The position numbers were made by a program, and so were the translations under genes. Below, piece by piece: positions 2,891-62,911 of a stretch of 64,000 nt of DNA (within the stretch, counting starts at the first letter, position 1; every line of letters starts with the position of its first letter). Source of the stretch: Ginglymostoma cirratum (taxonomy: Eukaryota); assembly GCA_024137785.1 (NCBI GenBank), contig JAHRHZ010000095.1, positions 1,114,013 through 1,178,012 of the forward strand. The letters are read 5' to 3'. A model generated the notes under the pieces. The model did no database searches. It was not told the DNA's origin and was given only the letters and a program-made list of their open reading frames with translations.

Positions 2891-3877
2891 CTCAGCCTAG
2901 TTCACTGTCAAAGTATGTCTCAATGGTACACAGCAGAAAGGACATATCATATATATTAGTTTAGTTTAGACCTGTATGCAAAACACAGTGGATGGAACTT
3001 TCCCCCTGCCTGGAGTGGTGAGAGCAATGACAAGTCTGGTGACAAAAAGAAGAAAATGATAAAAGTAGACTCACAACATCAAGAAAGCTTTCCTGCTGTT
3101 CCCCACAGGATTTAAGTGGCGACTCGAGAATCTAACCCTTGAATGGTGACGAGCTTATTTCCATATATTTGCATCTCACTAAAGGCCCAACCTACCTATT
3201 TACAACCCAGTTCCAATTTTCCTTCCCTCCACTTAGAAACTAGACTGTGAATATTCTTGACATATAAAATAGAACTGACAACTGTAGATCACCAAATATC
3301 TGTCCTGACCATCAAGTGACTGCTTCTTTTACGCAACACCTCTGCATAGTCCATGACCAACATCATCCTTCATCCACTCAATTCAGATCAGCAAACCACC
3401 ACCCTCAGCACATCATCATATCTGCTCTTGAGCCGACTCAGCCACCATTTTAGGTTTTTGACACCTTACTGTTGAGCTGATGAACTCCTACAATTGGCAT
3501 GCTTCTGCCAGATTGTTTTGCGAGCAGGGACAGCCATGCATCTGTGTAGGATGCTTTTGTGCTGACATGGATACACGTTTCTCAGGCCTCTTAATTTGCT
3601 TTCTTTGCAGTCTTCACTTTAGTTTACAGCCTCTGCACACCTCACATTGCTTTCTTCAGTCAAGGTGCTCACACAATTACTCTTGGTGAGGTGGGGTGCA
3701 TTGGCCACAGTTTGTTATCTAGGTCAAGAGCAAGCAGCCCAGTGATTACTGCTCGATTGGGTACAGAGCTGTTGGGACATTAGTCTGGGGACTGGGCCAG
3801 GGGAAGTTTTTCTTGCAATGAGACAAAGATTGAGATTCAATATGATGGAAATGGATGCAAAAGCAGTTACTAATCAT

Positions 3878-4037
3878 AAATAAAAACAGAAATTGCTGGA
3901 AAAACTCAGCAGGCCTGGCAGCATCTGTGGACAGAAAGCAGAGTTAATCTTTTGGGTCGATTGCCCTTCTTCAGAATAGTTCTATTTCTATTTTTACTTC
4001 TCATTTCTAGCATCTGCAGTTATTTTGGTTTTTGTTT
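3878..4037 (-). mobile_element. Penelope-derived mini-element with decayed hammerhead motif
   Basis: Minus strand TTCTGAAGAAGGGCAATCGACCCAAAAGATTAACTC; TSD CAGTTACT(A/G)ATCAT at 3864-3877 and 4038-4051. Confidence 0.75.
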
Positions 4038-12839: not shown

Positions 12840-13480
12840 AAAATGGAGCAATAGGAAAGAGAAAGGGTTCCTAGGTTCTTGCATGGGATGCTGGTGTCCT
12901 TGGTCCAGGAAATCAGCAGATCAACGGAAGGCACATTTCTATGGGGCTGAGGAGGTCCTCAAGGAAGCGCCTCAGAATAAATTGGGACAGGTGATCAGGG
13001 AGGTTAATTCTCAGAGTTTGACTCCCAGGACCTGGTGACAAGAGTGTAATAACTTTATATGACATCACCTACCAACACAGCAGCAGCAGACTCACACTAT
13101 TCAATGCGGCACATTTTCAACACCTACCCATTATCAATATCTGCCATCTAGAAGCCAGACCTAAGATTTAGACATGTCAGACTCTCACAAATTATCATAA
13201 TGCTTTCACATACCTTGATGTAATCACCTTTGTCTGGCACATGATCCAAGTACAGTGCCACACAACTACAGATACTTTTATCCTTCTTTTGCAGAACAAC
13301 ATTATCCATAATGCGAGGTAGTAAAGCAGAACCAATGGGGAAGATGCACACCTGCATCTCTTAAGCCCTGTGGAAAAGACTATTGTGTGCAACATGGTTC
13401 TCTCCATCGTGGGACCTGCTGGGAAAGAACCCCTAGTATCTACCATCACTGAGATGATGGAGGATGATGATGTTATTTCT
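12840..13480 (+). mobile_element. Harbinger Myb/SANT ORF remnant
   Basis: RVPRFLHGMLVSLVQEI..QVIREVNSQSLTPRTW resembles the Myb/SANT-like N-terminus of Harbinger ORF1. Confidence 0.55.
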
Positions 13481-34569: not shown

Positions 34570-34788
34570 GAAAGAACTGGAGATGCTGTAAATCAGGAAC
34601 AAAACCAGAAGTTGCTGGAAAAGCTCAGCAGGTCTGGCAGTATCTGTGAGGAAAAAATCAAAGTTAATGTTTCGGGTCTACTGAGTTCTGAGGAAGGGTC
34701 ACCGGACCCGAAATGTAAACTCTGATATTTTTCTTCACAGATGCTACCAGACCTGCTGAGCTTTTGCAGCAACATCTGTTTTTGTTCC
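34570..34788. mobile_element. Fold-back Penelope-derived mini-element
   Basis: Arms of about 85 bp, 34596-34678 and 34705-34788, are reverse complements; near-TSD ATAT(G/A)TAGTTACT at 34557-34569 and 34789-34801. Confidence 0.88.
34683..34722 (+). ncRNA. Minimal type-I hammerhead ribozyme motif
   Basis: GAGTT-CTGAGGA-A-GGGTC(ACCG)GACCC-GAAA-TGTA-AACTC: 5-bp stem I, 5-bp stem II, CUGANGA/GAAA core, GUA triplet. Confidence 0.75.
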
Positions 34789-36711: not shown

Positions 36712-36843
36712 AAAACCAAAAGAATTGCAGATGCTGGTAATCAGAAACACAAATGGAAATTGCTGGAAAAGCACAGCAGGTCTGGCAGCATCTGTGGAGA
36801 GAAATCAGAGTTAATGTTTTGGGTTGAGTCACCCTTCATCAGA
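36712..36843 (-). mobile_element. Penelope-derived mini-element with decayed hammerhead
   Basis: Minus strand AGTT-CTGATGA-A-GGGT..ACCC-AAAACATT-AACT; TSD ACTTAA(C/T)CTGATGTG at 36697-36711 and 36844-36858. Confidence 0.8.
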
Positions 36844-38432
36844 ACTTAATCTGATGTGCTTCTCAATCAATAATTACTGATGCAATACAAAATAATGATA
36901 AATAGGCTCCCAACACCTGCCAGAAGAGTCCGTCTACCTGCCACATTTCCCACTCATATAGGTTCAATTAAATGTTGAATGGCTTCATTCTGTGCTGTAA
37001 GATTCAATGAACGTGTAGTTCAGATGTGTAACACCACTGGAGATGATGCTCTGGAAGTTAAATGGCACTGTGTCAACTGCTGTTTCCAATGCTGCACACC
37101 TGAGGTACCAAGTTAAGAATACCACTTGTGTGGACATCCTCTGAATATACAGGAAACAGCTGAGGTGGTTCTGTCATGACATTGAACATCACTGGTTGAT
37201 GTGATGTTGGAATGAAAGTTCAGCAGAAAGGGAAATGGTGCTAAGAAACCTGACTCAGGCTAAGAATGAGTCAGACCTCATGGGTCCAGTATTCAAACAG
37301 GAAATAATATAGAAGCTTAGACTTCAGTTAAAGGGAGTAAAGACAATTTCCAAGAATGCACTTCGGATCGTGTTTGAGGTAGAAAAGTTTGCAACTGACA
37401 TATAGATATAAATTTTTTCTGATAAGAAAGTTTATGGGGATAAATGAGGACTTTGTGACTATAAATCTCCAGGAGAAGAATCAGTTATAGCTTCTGATGT
37501 GCCAACTATGATAACTTTGATTGGCTCTCCTTCCAACCATTCACCCAACCAAAAGCACCAGTATATTCCAAAACGTGGCATATGCAAATGACACTATTGC
37601 CTAGGATAGTTACTGGAAGGTAACCTTACAGCCTCTCATTCATGAGGGACCTCTGTGCTAGTGCTTGGTTAGCCCCACAAGGGCAATAACTGATCCTCAG
37701 CTTCAGTAAAACTGATCCAATTGAGTTGTTGAAGATTGCAGTAGACAAATCCAACTCATAACACTCTGCCAGCAGGGAGGACCACATAGGAAGTAAGATT
37801 AGGTATCTTGGGCACAAGCATTAATGATGTGGTAAGAAATAGAAATAAGAAGTTCTGATATGTGAATACATTGAGTCTGACAATGTTACATTACTGGATG
37901 TGTGGGCATCTTGCTGTTAGAGTTTCTGCGTTACTTTCTCTTATGTCAATGGATTATTCTTTGAAATATTCTGAAATTTATTGGCTTTGTACATAATAAA
38001 ATGATCAAATGGATCAATGAGTCTTGGATTATATATTTGCTTATGCAGAAGTTTGTGATGCTTATTGGGAGAATATTTATTTATTAATTAAAGTAATTAT
38101 TTGCTATCATCTGTTATTCACTGTTGGCATTGATTTTCATATGTCCAGAACCGACTGCAATGCTCCAAATGGTGTTGAATGAAAACTTGATATAACTATA
38201 ACGTAATGTTTACCAAGTTAAATTGCAGCTTTCAAGATGAATGCCAACATTCCACTAGTCTTTTAAAGTAATTTTTGAACCCTTCCTCTAGTGAATACTG
38301 GTTTATGTGCTAGATACCTTTAAATTTCTTTTCTTATCCAAGTTCCTGCCTTCTTGCTATTTGGAAAATACTCTGATTTATGTTTCATAGTTCCAAAGTG
38401 GATGACATTACAATTTCCTATATTAATTTTCA

Positions 38433-39164: not shown

Positions 39165-40645
39165 ATATAACACAGTGTGGAGCTGGAGGAGAACAGCAGG
39201 CCAGGCAGCATCAGAGGAGCAGGAAAGTTGACGTTTCAGGTCTGGACCCTTCTTCAGAAATGGGGGAGGGGGAAGGGAGCTCTGAAGTAAATAGATTGAG
39301 GAGGGGTGGAGCTGGGGGAGGTAAGTGGGATGGTGATAGGTTAGTACAGGTAGGGGATGGTGAGGATTGGTCAGTGAGGCGGGAGGAGTGGATAGGTGGG
39401 AAAGAAGATGGACAGGTTGTGTCAGGTCAAGGAGGCAGGGATGAGAGAGAGGGTTGGTCATGGGATGAGGCCAGGAATGGGGAGATTTTGAAATTGGTAA
39501 AGTCCACATTGAGACCATTGTATTGTAGGCTCCCAAGGCAGAAAATGAGGTGCTGCTCCTCCAGTTTCCAGGTGGCGTCATTGTGACACTGCAGGAGGCC
39601 TAGGATGGACATGTCGCCCAGGGAGTGGGAGGGGGAGTTGACGTGGTTCATGACTGGAAGGTGTGGTTGTTTGTCGCGAACTGAGTGCAGGTGCTCTACA
39701 AAGCAGTCTCCCAGCCTCCGCTTGGTCTCATTGATGTAGAGGAGGCCACATCGGGAGCAGTGGATGCAATAGACCACATTGGCAGATGTGCAGGTGAACT
39801 TCTGATGTGAAGGATTTTTTTGGCTCCTTGGATGGAGGTGAGGGGGAGGTGTAGGGGCAGGTGTAGCACTTCCTGCAGTTTCAGGGAAAGGTGCCAGGGG
39901 TGGTGGGGCTAGTGGGGAGTGTGGAGCGGACAAGGGACTCATGAAGAGAGTGGTCCCTAGAGAAGGTAGATGGGGTGGGGTGGTATATCTTTGGTAGTGG
40001 GGTCAGATTGCAGGTGGTGAAAGTGATGGAGAATGATACGTTGAAGACGGAGGTAGTAGGGTGATATGTGAGAACAAGGGGGATTTCATATTTGTTTTTG
40101 TTGCGGGGAGGTGATGTGAGGGCAGAGGTGCGGGAAATGCAAGAGATGCGGTCGAGAGCATTTTCAACTATCGAAGGGGGGATGTTCTGGTCCTTGAAAT
40201 AAGAGGACATCTGGGATTTTCAGGAGTGGAACAGCCCATCTTGGGAGCAGACGTGGTGGAGGCTGAGGAATCAGGAGTAGGGGATCGCATTCTTGCAGGA
40301 GGGTGGGTGAGTCGAGGTGTAGTGTAGGTAGCTGTGGGAGTCAGTGGGCTTGAAACAGATATCAGTTTTGAGGCGATCACCAGAGATGGAGAGAGAGAGG
40401 TCCAGGAAGGATAGAGAGGTATCAGAGACGGTCCAAGTGAACTTGATGTTGGGGTGATAGGTGTTAGTTAAGTTGATGAACTGTTCAAGCTCCTTGTGGG
40501 AGCACGAGGCAGCGCTGATATAGTCATCGATATATTGGAGGAAGAGGTGGGGGATAGTTCCAGTGTAGCTGCGGAAGAGGGACTATTCCACATCTCCTAC
40601 GAAGAGGCAGACGTAGCTTGGGCCTATGTGGGTTCCAACGGCTCC
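39165..40645 (-). mobile_element. Penelope-like element: RT C-terminal part, GIY-YIG endonuclease (disrupted) and terminal repeat
   Basis: FTCTSANVVYCIHCSRCGLLYINETKRRLGDCFVEH..NH..SH..LEEQHLIFCLGSL..GLN (GIY-YIG with C/H cluster); upstream KPTDSHSYL..HPPSCKNAIPYS typical of PLE RT thumb. Confidence 0.93.
39226..39260 (-). ncRNA. Minimal hammerhead motif in the PLE terminal repeat
   Basis: Minus strand TTT-CTGAAGA-A-GGGT(CCAG)ACCT-GAAA-CGTC-AAC; palindromic ACGT in place of stem III. Confidence 0.7.
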
Positions 40646-42221: not shown

Positions 42222-42585
42222 ATGTTTAGCGCTGTTTACAGGATTTATCAATAAGATGGTCATTATGGCTATCTAGGCTAACAATTCTAATTCCGTATCA
42301 GGCTTTTGAGTCATGGAATGATTCAGTAAAGAGACCTCTATTCTACTTCCACATACTTATTAACTATTGCAATTCAGCAAGCATCTTAATTGGGCAAAGT
42401 CAACTGAAAACCTGCCGCAGCTTTGAAGAATGGTTATTTGTTTTAAATATCTATCCAGTTGTCTGCCATGACTGCAAAAGTATCATCTGACCACAGCCCC
42501 CTTTTCAGCTTTCATTTGCGAAGAATAATCATTCCATAATTGTGAAGCAAAACTTAAACAGTTTCCAGTAAAATATATCTTGCAG

Positions 42586-42687
42586 AATAAACACAGAAAT
42601 TGCTGGAAAAGCTCAGCAGGTCTGGCAGCATCTGTGAATATCAATCAGAGTTAACTTTGTGGGCCTGGTGAGCCTTCCTCAGAACTT
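42586..42687 (-). repeat. Penelope terminal-repeat copy, hammerhead decayed
   Basis: acagaaattgctggaaaagctcagcaggtctggcagcatctgtg..gagttaac..ccttcctcagaac. Confidence 0.8.
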
Positions 42688-43039
42688 AGTAATTTGTCCA
42701 TCTGCATTCATAGAGACACGTCATGGACGTGCTATTTGTAATGTCATATAGTTCATAAGTAAGTTAGCCTAACTTTAAAATGGATACAAGGAGACTTTCA
42801 AAGTTTCTTCTGAAAGGATGTAACTTTCCTTGTGGATTCAATGGCAGTAAAAGCAGGCATTGAGGCTGCATTATCTTGAGAATCAATCGCAAAGAGTCAT
42901 TAAGTAATTCAAGTATTCCAAAACTGTCCATTGAAACCTCAGAAGGCCTGAGGTCTTAAAGGTTTTCCAATGTTAAACAGGGACGGGAGGGACATCATAA
43001 GGACTATAATTGATCCTCTATTGTGGATCGAGGATTTAC

Positions 43040-47854: not shown

Positions 47855-48730
47855 TGCAGGAGGAGACCACTGATTCTATCAAGCCTACTCCATTATTCAG
47901 TACGATCATGGCTTTATATGCTACCATCCTGTTTGCCCCCCACATACCAGCAACTCCTTGAAGATTAAAGATCAGAAGCCTATTTCTCTTAGGCTTGAAT
48001 ATATTCAATGACCCAACCTCCACTGCTCTGTTGAAGACGATTCTGAAGGCTAATGTCTATCTGAGAGAGAGAAAAAACTCCTCACCTTCATCTTAAATGG
48101 AAGACATTACTTTTAAATTGAGTGTCCTGGTCTAGATTCCTTTATAAGATGAAACATTCTCTCAGTAACTACCCTGCCAAGCACCCCAGAAAGTTTTACA
48201 TTTCAATAAAGTCACCTTATTCTTCTAAACTTTACTGTGTATAGACTCAATCTTTCTTCATAGCATGACCCATATAAACTACTTAAATAAGGAGACCAAA
48301 ACAGCACAGAATGCTACAATAGTGTGGAGCTTCTTTTCTGAAGAAGGGTCCCGATCCGAAACGTCAGCTTTCCTGCTCCTCTGATGCTGCCTGACCTGCT
48401 GTGTTCCTCCAGCTCCACACTGTGTTATCTCTGACCCCAGCATCAGCATTTCTTGCTATCTCAGAATGCTACAATGCTGTCTCTCCAATGTACTGTACAA
48501 CTGTAACAAGGATTCCCTACTTTTATAATCCATTTCCTTGTAATAAAGTTCAACATTCTGTTCACCTTCCTATTTGCTTGCTGTACTTGTGTGCTATATT
48601 GTTGTAATTCATTTACAAGTATGTACTGATTCCTCTGTATTTCAAAATTCTGTAGTCTCTCTTCAGTTTAATAATGCTCTGCTTTTCTATTCTTTCTGTT
48701 GAAGAGGACAATTCACTTTTTTCCAAATTG
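47855..48730 (-). mobile_element. Old CR1 3' fragment, interrupted by the 48321-48461 insert
   Basis: ttgaatatattcaatgacc, ttcttctaaact, cccttg-type reversed CR1 motifs. Confidence 0.6.
48321..48461 (+). mobile_element. Penelope-derived mini-element with intact hammerhead core
   Basis: CTGAAGA-A-GGGTCCCGATCC-GAAACGTC at 48338-48365; perfect 14-bp TSD CAGAATGCTACAAT at 48307-48320 and 48462-48475. Confidence 0.88.
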
Positions 48731-48901: not shown

Positions 48902-50520
48902 TGAAAACAACAAATGCTGGAGATCACAGCATGTCAGGCAGCATCCCTGCAGACAGAGCAAACCAATGTTTTGAATCTAGCTGACTCATCATCAGAGCTG
49001 AAGTGAAGTGTGAAGGGGACAGCATTTATGCTTTAGTTTGTTGGGGGAAGGTGATGTGGATGTAGTGGATGTTGGATGCTGGTGGAGAAAAGATGTTGAC
49101 AATTCAGATTGAGTAATCAGACTGTGAGAATGGCAGAACAATGGTGTGTCTCCTGCCAGACTTGAAAGGACAGACAAAATAAAATAGAATATCCTTTATT
49201 GTCCCTTGTACTGCAATACAGAAGTATGAGTGCTGTAAAAAGTTTTTACAATGGTTGCCTTTTAATGGCACCATCTTAGATACAAGTACCTCGGCGCAAA
49301 TCTTGCAGAGTAAAAAAAAGTGTTCTTATTCAAAGAGAATTAAAGAAAGTATTAGCATTATTTACAGAGGTAGTTATAACATAGTGAAAAAGTTTTAAAT
49401 TGCAGTCTGATAACAGCAGCGCAATATACGGCGCCAGGCCCAAGTCCAGAAATTGTCCCACATCGCTCCAGCCTCCAGTCTGCTCCTCCTCGGCACTCAG
49501 CAGCAACTGGGTAAGTCGTGCTGTACTGGGATTCGTATGTCGACCCCTCCACTGCTGCAGAGACTCAGCCCCCTGATGCTCCGGGGACTTGGCCTCTCCG
49601 TCACCGCCTCAGACTGCCTGCTCCCACATTCACCGTCGGCTGCCTTGGGCTGCCTTCTGCCGCTCGCCTCAGGCTGTCTCCTCCCGCCTGCTCCCGCTCA
49701 CGCCACTGGCTCATGCTCGCTGCCTGCATAATGCTCCAGGGCTGCTTCCCCATGTGCTGCTGCAGAGTTCTTCTCTGCACTGCTCTGCAGTTCGCTGCTG
49801 CAGGTTTCACTGCTTGCGGTACTCTGGGGCACAAGGGCCCGCTGCTCTGGACTTCCTGCTGGCTCCGCTGCTGAGGGGAGAGAAGAAGAAGAAAGAGAAG
49901 AGGAAAGAAAGGACAAAGGAGGAAAAGAGCAGGCGGTGCAGAGGAGCTCTGACAGGAGCGTTTTGGAAGTTGGCATCATTCGAACAGGTGCAACGTAGGC
50001 AAAGGAACTGGGAGAATGGGATGGAGTCCTTGGAGGATGTGCAGCGTGACGAGCTGTAGCAACGGTAGCTATGGGAGTCAGTGGCTTTGTAGTGGATGGC
50101 AATAGACAGTTTACCCCCCAAAATGGAGACAGAGAGGTCAAGGAAATGAAGGGAAGTGTTGGAAATGTGAAAGTTGTAGAGGGGTGGAAATTGGAGCCAA
50201 AATGAACAAATTTTTCAAAGCCCTGTTGGGCAGTTGTCGATGTACTGAGAAAAGAGATGTAGGAGGGGAGCAATGTAAGATTGGAACAAGGATTGTTCCA
50301 CATCCCCCATAAAATAGGCAGGCATAAGTGCGACCCATGCAGGTGCCCATAGCCACTCCTTTGACTTGGCAGAAGTGAGATGAATTAGAGGAGAAATTGT
50401 TCAGTGAGAGAACAAGTTCAGCCAGGTGCAGGAGAGTGGTGGTGGATGGGGATTGTTCAGGCCTCTGTCTGAGGAAGAAGCCTAGAGCTCTCAGACAAAC
50501 CTGCTGGGGAATGGAGGTAT
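48902..50520 (-). mobile_element. Second Penelope family (terminal repeat 48902-49175, RT 49935-50520) split by an unrelated insert
   Basis: MAMGTCMGRTYACLF and YKATDSHSY..KDSIPFSQFLCLRCTCS are PLE RT motifs; decayed CTGATGA..GAGTC..GATTC motif near 48970-48995. Confidence 0.8.
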
Positions 50521-51633
50521 AGATGGACGGTAATTTTTTTCTTCCATTTGCTACTAGCAGCCAACAAAATTGACAGGCTGGGGGACAAAAAGCTTCAGCT
50601 TCAATGGCTTCTAGCAGTTGAAGTATGGGGGAGAAAGCTACAGATCAGGGCTTGTGAGTGAGTTTACCATTTGTTGCAGAGATTGGAAATGGTGATGGAG
50701 TGGTGCGATTCACAGGAGAGATCTTGAAGCTATCCTTGTTTCCCTGGCCTTCCTAAGTCAGGTGGCAACTTAAATGTAAATCAGACTATCAATTGCATTT
50801 CAGGAGCCTAATTTAACTCTCTTAATAACATGTCTCAACTCAGCAATATTTGTATAACATACTCTTCATCTCCATAAAACTGGCAAAAGGATGTATGGAG
50901 CAGGTTCAGGACGTTCACCATTTTAACTTTTCTAATGCTTCTTCTGACGCTGTCACATTGTCTAATATTCAGATTTTTGAGTATGAATGTAACCAGCAAT
51001 TACTAACACCATTTTTTAAACTGATCAAGTTTTTGATGTAGGGTTGAAAGTGTTCAATAGGTAATAGGCAGGGTATATAAATTTAACTAATTTTTGCTGA
51101 ATTTTCACTTAATTCTGGAAGGTTGGTATAAATCAGTCAGAAAACACTCTTTCACCACTGAAGTAACAATCTCAAAACACAATATGTCAAGCTTTCTACG
51201 GACACATTTTTGGCTCACCAACTTAATTACTTCTCAACTTGATTGATGACGATATATGGGCTGCGTTATTCCCATGTTGGTACTGAAAAAGCACACTGTA
51301 CATAAAAAGTCTTCAAAACAAACTACGTAGAGATTCACATGGAGAGTTGTATATATTATAAAGCTTTAGCCTGCAAATAGTTAGCAAAAAATCTAGTGAT
51401 TAGATAGGCTAGGTTTGAGTCTTTGCTAAATGGACAGCAGGTACCAGGAATTCTTCATAAACAGCAAAGTAGGCTATATAAGATGCCATAACTAGATGAC
51501 TGCCCTATCCTTCTGTCATCCATTCTATGTGGCATGGTGTGCATGGACACATAATTTAATTTGAAAAGGGTCTGCTTGCTTTTCAACAGGCAATTATTAT
51601 AGACACTGAAACCTCAATACATGAACACAAGTA

Positions 51634-51762
51634 TGGGGCTGGATGAACACAGCAGGTCAAGCAGCATCATAGGAGCAGCAATGCTGCTTGACCTGCTGTG
51701 TTCATCCAGCCCCATGCTTGTTATCTCAGATTCTCCAGCATCTGCAGTACCTTTTATCTCTC
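51634..51762. mobile_element. Fold-back Penelope-terminus insertion (hairpin)
   Basis: Perfect 35-bp inverted repeat 51633-51667 / 51681-51715; 15-bp TSD ACATGAACACAAGTA at 51619-51633 and 51763-51777. Confidence 0.9.
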
Positions 51763-54929: not shown

Positions 54930-55150
54930 GAAACAAAGAACATGTGAATGATGGAAATCTGAAACAAAAACAGAAATACAAGAAAATCTCAGATAACAAG
55001 CATGGGACTGGATGAACACAGCAGGTCAAGCAGCATCATAGGAGCAGGAAAACTTGACGTTTCGGAAGAAAATCTCTGTAGGTCTGGCAGCATCAGTGGA
55101 AAGAAAGCAGAGTTAATGTTTCGAGTCCGGCGTCTCTTCATCAAAACTGA
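54930..55150 (-). mobile_element. Penelope mini-element carrying a nested 75-bp insert (54991-55065) from another PLE terminus
   Basis: 11-bp TSD AAGAAAATCTC at 54980-54990 and 55066-55076; outer hammerhead remnant TTGATGAAGAG..CTCGAAAC on the minus strand. Confidence 0.85.
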
Positions 55151-61650: not shown

Positions 61651-61870
61651 TATGTGTGTTTTCGCCAGTCAGTTGGCTTTTCCATAAACCTAAACAGACC
61701 CAGGATAAAGTAATCAGCAACTGACCTATAAGTTATTGATGACAGAATTAGATAAAGCAGGAGATGCTGGGGATGGGGTAGGGACTGTGGGAGCCTTTGA
61801 TGATGCCAAACACATGTTAAATAGTGTTTGCATAAGAAGGCATTAAGTAGAGAAAAAAAGGACCAAAATG

Positions 61871-61912
61871 GCTGTTCTGAAGAAGAGTCACTGGACTCGA
61901 AATGTTAACAGC
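61871..61912 (+). ncRNA. Minimal type-I hammerhead motif within a TSD-flanked 101-bp insert (61873-61973)
   Basis: GCTGTT-CTGAAGA-A-GAGTC(ACTG)GACTC-GAAA-TGTT-AACAGC; TSD CCAAAATGGC at 61863-61872 and 61974-61983. Confidence 0.78.
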
Positions 61913-62911
61913 ACTTTTTTGCTATAGATACTGATGGACCCGTTTAGCTTCTCCAGCAATTTCTGCTTTTGCTCCAAAATGGCAGTGTCTAATTTTAGAT
62001 TTCCTGACCATCACAATCTGCATAAAATTATGCTCTGTGTGCTTCAGCATATGGTGTTAACACCTACCCTAACATTTTCACCAAGATAACATTTGTTGCA
62101 AATTACCCTGGAAATCAGTAGCAATAGCATAGATGCCATTTTGATACTTAATTGGTACCTATAGCATCAAAACTATTGAGACTATGGTGCCTGGTTTTCC
62201 AGCTGTGAACTGTATAGAGTTGGTGCTACATAGCCAGTTATTTTCTGTCTGGTAACCCGACTTGATCTGAAGACTATTTTGAGTCTTTAACCATGAATAG
62301 TGCCATGACAGGTTGACTGGTTTTATATACAGATATAAATAATTTTTTTTAAAAATGACAAAATATGACAAGTTGATGAGAAAATTAAAAATAACTGAAA
62401 GGACACGAGAATACTGTAAATTTTCTTCCTGTAGTCCCACATTCAACTTTGTCTGGAGCCTCCCTTGCTTCTTCCAGGCTCTTATTCAGATGATTCTGGC
62501 AAGCCTTTTTTTCCTTCCTCTAGTTTCAGCTTTAATAGTCTCTGCCAAGTTTCCTTCATTCTCCAGACTCCTCTCATTTAATTCTCCCGTTAAGATCATT
62601 ACATTTTTTAAAAAATGTAGTTGCTGTCAGTGATCGTCTTACAGAACGTAGGTACCATTTCTAACTTTGCTGTCGGTGACAATTCTGTGTATTGTCACCA
62701 ATGATTCTAAAACAAAATTCAAATTTTGAGTTAACTAATGTTTCCTGAATTAGGGGTTCTGGGGAAATGTGGGTCATGGGCATCTCTGTCCAATACATTT
62801 ACAATACAGAAACTATCACTATGACATTTATGGAACACCTGTCCCTGTTACAGTCACCTCTGGCTGCACCCTGTTGTTATGCCACCTATTATACAAAAAA
62901 AAGCAACTTCA

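Follow-up and report, generated by a model that had tools for sequence, protein, structure and literature searches.

Insertion at 61863-61983

The window, a stretch of 64,000 nucleotides from the nurse shark Ginglymostoma cirratum, contains a motif resembling a minimal hammerhead ribozyme within a short repeat at 61863-61983. The locus raises the question of whether the ribozyme generates the mobile unit that carries it or whether the unit is shaped by other steps in the copying of a larger element. The first-pass annotation described a 101-bp mobile unit flanked by a target-site duplication, and both were observed. The sequence CCAAAATGGC is present on both sides of the 101-bp insert at 61873-61973, in copies located at 61863-61872 and 61974-61983 of the forward strand, which constitute a 10-bp target duplication. 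A match of at least 10 bases placed as tightly as this pair was found in 7 of 20,000 random position pairs. The 5′ copy may reach 61875, with 12 of 13 bases identical to the 3′ copy, and the extension may represent a short microhomology with the first bases of the element.

The insert (61873-61973, forward strand) is a solo stub that covers positions +1 to +101 in the terminal repeat belonging to a Penelope-like element (PLE), here called family A, and its end is the tail-less priming site. The other genome copies closest to the unit have 77-82% identity to it (41 matches among the 40 of 470 candidates that were scored). The locus is ordinary, one decayed copy among several hundred thousand. 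It is highly probable that 61873-61973 is an old solo stub of a PLE. The element likely belongs to the Neptune clade and the stub is likely inactive; in the most likely course of events, a reverse transcriptase (RT) primed about 100 bases into uncut RNA and copied it to its 5′ end, likely the first base of stem I. The proposal that ribozyme-only stubs are retrotransposed has to be modified: short stubs are mobile, but about 60 of the 101 bases of this unit are positioned downstream of the motif.

Hammerhead motif

All parts of the motif are on the forward strand. The 5′ strand of stem I (61871-61876, GCTGTT) begins with two bases of target DNA, and its third base is not that of family A. It is followed at 61877-61884 by the catalytic core C3-A9 (CUGAAGA, 61877-61883) and an extra A (61884) between positions 9 and 10.1. 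Stem II (61885-61898, GAGTC/GACTC) has five base pairs and a 4-base loop, with A-U at pair 2 and an intact G10.1-C11.1 pair. The segment 61899-61906 contains GAAA (61899-61902), the stem III tetramer ATGT, which is a decayed form of ACGU, and U17 (61906), after which the cut is predicted in a GUU triplet. The 3′ strand of stem I (61907-61912, AACAGC) differs in its last two bases from the orthologue in organism D. The core, the extra A, and both stems thus read as they were first annotated, including the overlap of the outer GC of stem I with the target duplication: the outer pairs at 61871-72 use target DNA.

Minimal hammerheads (min-HHRs) were described in the pLTRs of metazoan PLEs (Neptune, Poseidon, and Xena of fishes), with an extra base and weak activity as dimers (Cervera and De la Pena 2014, PMC4209133). 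The motif of the 61863 copy contains the characteristic core CUGANGA, GAAA, UH, stems I and II, the extra base between 9 and 10.1, and the G10.1-C11.1 pair. Shared with the published motifs are the core boxes, the 9/10.1 extra base, G10.1-C11.1, a palindromic 15.2-16.2, the lack of stem III, and a short stem I, and also the occurrence mostly as single motifs from truncated copies and the compensatory changes between families. The annotation of the motif as a PLE minimal hammerhead is in agreement with its position in a PLE terminal repeat and with the published extra base and palindromic stem III. No shark is named in the accessible text of that study or in its supplement file 2, and the same text gives neither start positions of truncated copies nor counts of breaks at the cut site; the 61863 copy differs from the published motifs in lacking the palindrome.

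For the 61863 copy, the minimum-energy fold is predicted to consist of stems I and II (-14.3 kcal/mol), the pairs of which have probabilities of 0.81-1.0. The stem III hairpin of a canonical type I hammerhead is absent from this predicted fold, and an Rfam scan of the window matched no hammerhead family with an E of 1 or below. Stem III is reduced to A(C/T)GT, as annotated. The palindromic 15.1-16.1 tetramer that would form stem III of a dimer is missing from the 61863 copy, which has AUGU, whereas the family has 5,968 exact ACGT copies; the palindrome was lost by CpG decay. The self-duplex of AUGU is predicted to be unstable at +2.6 kcal/mol, compared to -1.7 kcal/mol for ACGU. The description of the motif as the best-formed hammerhead thus applies to the monomer stems and not to the tetramer. 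Formation of stem III by the 61863 copy would require a partner. No tandem partner is present in the window, and the nearest family-A copy (55068-55148) is 6.7 kb away on the opposite strand. Dimer co-folding of the 61863 copy yielded strand-swapped stems rather than the active fold, a result that says nothing about activity. A search of the window with a loose core pattern gave 16 occurrences, compared to 7.9 expected, and seven motifs pass the structural descriptor. A Watson-Crick stem I of at least six bases, such as the 6-bp stem I of the 61863 copy, is present in 3 of 184 motifs.

Covariation of the stems

The stems were initially considered to covary based on a comparison with the copy at 34683. 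The sequences of that copy (motif at 34688) are as stated, GGGTC/GACCC and GAGTT/AACTC. Covariation was evaluated here from exact genome counts and a pair count. At pair 2 of stem II the genome contains 22,881 G-C, 1,573 G·U, 472 A-U, and 1,173 A·C copies; 81 A-U copies are expected under independence, which corresponds to an odds ratio of 5.9. The classes differ in N7, which in a hand count of the first 100 rows of each class was G in ~87 (G-C), A in ~52 (G·U), U in ~59 (A-U), and G in ~78 (A·C). The differences in N7 indicate three subfamilies that step from G-C through G·U to A-U, whereas the prevalence of G in the A·C class indicates that the mismatch class is composed mostly of mutated G-C copies. 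The A-U pair of the 61863 copy, which has A at N7, may be inherited or the result of a later mutation.

The claim of covarying stems therefore stands for pair 2 of stem II genome-wide, but does not extend to stem I, in which target DNA and lineage-specific changes produce the apparent pairing. Stem I of family A has four base pairs, AGUU/AACU. In a count over 22 distinct hand-picked rows from four families, with relatedness not removed, 98% of stem II cells and 69% of stem I cells were paired, and at the outer two positions of stem I pairing was lacking in 16 and 17 of the rows. A change of a stem I pair from U-A to C-G separates family D, and others as well, from family A in hand-picked rows in which relatedness is retained, and the only core positions that differ between family majorities are N7 and H17. 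The G in stem I of the 34683 copy is located at an inverted-arm junction, and the family base at this position is C. Covariation between T(+1) and A(+38) of stem I was considered and rejected: the genome contains 16 AACAG copies, TGTT is in front of the sequence in one of the 15 others, and the T/A combination was found in none of four young AACA copies. The organism D orthologue reads AACACTGC at the 3′ strand of stem I, not AACAGCAC. AGT comes directly after the 3′ target copy, extending the match to 12 of 13 bases, and the original base at 61873 was therefore probably A. The apparent covariation of stem I arose by chance, from the target site and from mutation after insertion.

Parent element

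The full family-A element is about 3.3 kb long. It is organized as the hammerhead (+1 to +38) within a repeat reaching +137, a start codon at ~+174, a frame with RT and GIY-YIG nuclease, a 3′ spacer of ~256 bases, and a second copy of +1 to +137. The motif was found in 20 of 29 oriented long loci, in most of which it is positioned ~260 bases after the stop of the frame (range 230-545), and family-A copies that extend upstream run into the GIY-YIG frame. A single frame with RT followed by a C-terminal GIY-YIG was found in the parent element only, in broken frames with weak Pfam scores, and the GIY-YIG match has an E of 2.7e-4, just under the cut-off. The parent frames contain the RT motifs GxAMG and YIDD and have 47-59% identity to the family-B frame. 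A C-x4-C-x2-C linker precedes the nuclease in 16 of 22 frames. The CX2-5CxxC linker is a mark of Neptune and Nematis and is absent in Penelope and Poseidon (PMC8557442), and the parent element likely belongs to the Neptune clade, judging from this linker motif common to Neptune and Nematis. Full-length copies were identified at two of 20 loci picked for long frames (L327 and L333).

The abundance of family A was determined from 80 random stretches of 10 kb, in which 348 kb were masked and 452 kb readable. The readable sequence contains 44 family-A arms, which remained of 74 raw hits after filtering for score and coverage, and extrapolation gives ~420,000 arms genome-wide.

The published anatomy of EN+ PLEs includes a pLTR, a 30-40-bp tail, an inverted 5′ copy, an 8-10-bp target-site duplication, microhomology joins, and solo pLTRs (PMC8557442, PMC3846280). 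Young family-A copies have the same marks, with a 36-base tail, inverted 5′ copies in the form of fold-backs (30 of 91 copies), target duplications of 9-15 bases, and 5′ microhomology; the 61863 copy is a tail-less form. Unlike in the accessible descriptions of EN+ PLEs, short forms dominate in family A and the copies have a sharp common 5′ edge at stem I.

Related elements are also present in the genome. Family B (L039, L046, L077, L093, and other loci) has stem II GGGUU/GGCCC and a GUC triplet, and is probably the youngest of the families, given its near-identical copies and frames of up to 509 codons. A different type of GIY-YIG, which apparently lacks the extra linker, is represented by pieces at L123:1973-2239 and L164:927-1214, and the genome thus seems to contain Poseidon-like elements as well. 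The full-length family-A copies (L327:2206-2400 and L333:2081-2280) contain two pyrimidine tracts that end with CAG and resemble splice acceptors, at family positions +45 to +55, just past the cut site, and +165 to +174, just ahead of the start codon; no donor was identified for these tracts. In Drosophila, the 5′ leader of Penelope contains an intron.

Ends of family-A copies

The young sample comprised the first 90 listed places of the 5,968 intact copies (contigs C1-C4), with 91 motifs: 18 with upstream spacer, 30 fold-back, and 43 solo. All 73 copies without spacer start at -2 to +5, in a sample that required +5 to +37 to be intact and in which later starts cannot appear. The 3′ ends fall mainly into two groups, at about +99-110 and at +134-137, and the two end sites are 36 nt apart. 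Target duplications of at least 9 bases were found in 19 of the 43 solo stubs. In a sample of 53 arms selected without this condition, 23 start at -5 to +5, 16 at +6 to +27, and five at +28 to +35, and nine extend upstream, some of which may be spurious. The full-length copy L327 starts at +3 and is preceded by unrelated DNA, whereas L333 starts at +14. The 5′ edge is thus a window of about 7 bases rather than a single base. It is positioned in a TCAGTTC or CCATTTC context in families A, B, and C.

The ribozyme left no footprint on these ends. The predicted cut site has 73 5′ breaks and 10,593 read-throughs, and a control position has 66 breaks; 3′ breaks number 30, compared to 52 at the control, of ~6,000. 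Cut RNA as the template was rejected, since breaks are not in excess on either side of the cut site. Together with the copies that start at stem I, this indicates that the stubs likely derive from uncut RNA that has its 5′ end at stem I. The stubs are set by the 5′ end of the RNA and the priming sites, not by the ribozyme.

The consensus of transcription initiators is YYANWYY. Position +1 is in an initiator-like context of this type in families A, B, and C and is therefore the putative transcription start. It is possible, if rather doubtful, that the edge has another origin, such as nicking of the repeat by the element's nuclease, a protein block to RT, or a splice acceptor at CAG +0/+2. The starts scatter from -2 to +5 and are not accompanied by a cap G; a cap-derived G before +1 was hinted at by older copies, but was discarded because only 1 of 15 young solos with intact +1 has it. 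Position +1 is G in six of 14 young copies that start at +2. The context of the edge ends with a pyrimidine tract and CAG, the start of L327 at +3 is consistent with such an acceptor, and helix I is the point at which an intron of Drosophila virilis ends (PMC4209133), with a start site 46 bases before that intron (PMC2377424). However, splicing would leave an upstream exon, and in many solos the target duplication is immediately adjacent to the edge. The G at +2 is kept in 29 of the 43 solos. Families B and C, in which 26 of 45 copies match four or fewer bases to the left of the core, have the same edge in the same YYA context.

The predominance of stubs and fold-backs over spacer-bearing copies (73 vs 18) would also fit a self-propagating, non-autonomous family similar to retrozymes or SINEs, in which the ribozyme cuts stubs from longer RNAs for copying, as the wording of the first-pass annotation suggests. 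The Penelope promoter is internal in Drosophila (PMC2377424), so that stubs could be transcribed, and animal retrozymes derive from PLE repeats (bioRxiv 10.64898/2026.07.22.740005). The non-LTR retrozymes of that study resemble the stubs in being non-coding, hammerhead-bearing, and derived from PLE repeats, and in occurring in a cartilaginous fish. However, they are composed of tandem units, each with a hammerhead, whereas the 61863 copy is a single unit, not in tandem, the ends of which do not fall on the predicted cut site. Furthermore, the ends of the stubs are those of the autonomous element. Propagation by cleavage is therefore improbable; stubs may be transcribed without any role of cleavage.

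Age and decay of the 61863 copy

The insertion is present at the same site in organisms C and D, in which contigs bridge the flank and the element, and a contig of organism A joins its right side. No joint skipping the insert, as expected of an empty orthologous site, was found in four runs, the contigs of which show presence only. The flanks diverge from the window by ~6.5% in organism C and ~16% in organism D. The TG of stem III is also present in organism D, and C11.1 is changed to U in organism C. The 61863 copy is old and likely inactive. In the orthologous flank at 61768-61853, organism C has 19 extra bases and organism D skips 80 bases, differences usable as markers.

In random copies, 224 of 1,075 positions (21%) diverged in the motif and 240 of 1,813 (13%) downstream, in a sample found with the downstream part and thus biased toward more divergence in the motif. 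The core is kept in eight of 32 random copies, and ACGU in addition in two. The annotation proposed that several PLE families conserve the RNA structure, which holds for source elements but not for inserted copies. The sequence comparisons indicate that selection acts on the hammerhead in source elements and that inserted hammerheads decay.

The 61863 copy has the reverse distribution, with 3 of 38 differences in the motif and 18 of 63 downstream (Fisher p 0.02), opposite to 29 random copies. Together with the six-base Watson-Crick stem I, and with the organism D orthologue, which has at most three differences in the 38 motif bases compared to ~16% in the flanks (p 0.12; two orthologues, partly read), this could indicate that the host kept the hammerhead and extended its stem I to 6 bp, which would result in a ribozyme specific to this locus and similar to the intronic hammerheads of amniotes. 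Such domestication is very unlikely. The copy was chosen as the best of many, the p value for organism D is 0.12, and the organism C orthologue differs in the motif at about the flank rate, including the change of C11.1. The ACGU palindrome is lost in both the window and organism D, and the extra stem I pairs are absent in organism D. The copy has neither stem III nor a partner, and no host exon was recognised by eye nearby among the 156 open frames of the window. Template switching that perfects imperfect hairpins may provide a neutral route to longer stems.

Proposed mechanism and function

In Anolis Poseidon (PAc), nicking of the target by the GIY-YIG nuclease is combined with internal priming by RT at two sites separated by the length of one tail; cleavage by the hammerhead requires protein, uncut RNA serves as the principal substrate, and reads ending at the cut site are absent from the accessible data (Frangieh et al. 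2024, PMC11167929). The geometry of family A is the same, with two priming sites one tail apart and 100-140 bases downstream of the hammerhead. There are also differences: the start codon of PAc is inside the hammerhead, whereas family A has the CX2-5CxxC linker and a start at ~+174, and cleavage of PAc was demonstrated as protein-assisted, whereas that of family A is predicted from sequence.

The RNA of family A would start at +1, the first base of stem I. RT would prime at the 5′ copy of the priming site, or on a short transcript of the terminal repeat, resulting in a stub of 101 or 137 bases. A fold-back would form if the nascent DNA, having reached the 5′ end of the RNA, copied itself. An antisense template was proposed for fold-backs (PMC3846280); the fixed 3′ ends and variable 5′ truncation of long copies favour a sense template.

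The initial 38 bases of the putative mRNA would be taken up by the hammerhead, so that cutting would remove the cap. If +1 is a capped start, cleavage would decap the mRNA, which is a concrete and testable role. A more speculative reading, which we regard as rather unlikely, is that the shark-type Neptune hammerhead is a self-limiting switch that decaps the mRNA when the element's protein binds the priming site 60-100 bases downstream, and does not make template. With the same geometry, the 101- and 137-base stubs would be an obligatory by-product of internal priming. If true, this reading would explain why short and fold-back insertions number in the hundreds of thousands and why the hammerheads of PLEs are mostly single. 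The family-wide counts bear on the purpose of PLE hammerheads. They mirror in a genome the in vitro result from Anolis, with insertions from uncut RNA and a motif under selection in the sources. A literature search, mostly without subscription papers and Repbase, found no report of a fixed 5′ edge or of shark PLE hammerheads. The whole-genome counts, the full-length copy with the same edge, and the orthologue check were added here.

Related copies and other features

Besides the copy at 55068-55148, the window contains a family-A fold-back (34596-34788, forward strand), in which an inverted arm (34596-34683) is joined to a forward arm starting with +1 at 34684. Further family-A copies on the reverse strand are a solo stub with tail that starts at +1 (36719-36846) and stubs that start at ~+1 (42585-42691) and ~+3 (3872-3976). 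A truncated family-C element (39182-40582, reverse strand) has RT and GIY-YIG frame fragments upstream of a hammerhead at 39257 and provides a link between motif and element within the window. A family-C stub (48336-48413, forward strand) contains a hammerhead with ACGU, a GUC triplet, and a weak stem I. A further broken Penelope-like RT piece is located at 49698-50644 on the reverse strand.

The 5′ junctions at loci L029, L096, L166, L183, and L333 contain short repeated pieces of the 5′ half of the hammerhead, as if RT jumped repeatedly at the 5′ end of the RNA. One family-A copy (L221:1490-1535) ends where the cut is predicted and is followed by a run of T and a family-B hammerhead stub, a single case to which no excess across the genome corresponds.

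Rfam microRNA matches at 34626-34758 and 51624-51722 are far below the gathering score and are positioned on fold-back repeats, and were rejected. The family-A repeat can thus give rise, as a by-product, to hairpins resembling microRNAs and to 'perfect' stems in these genomes. The reverse strand at 13155-13324 contains a decayed U1 snRNA-like sequence (Rfam E 0.026, below the gathering score), which is probably a pseudogene.
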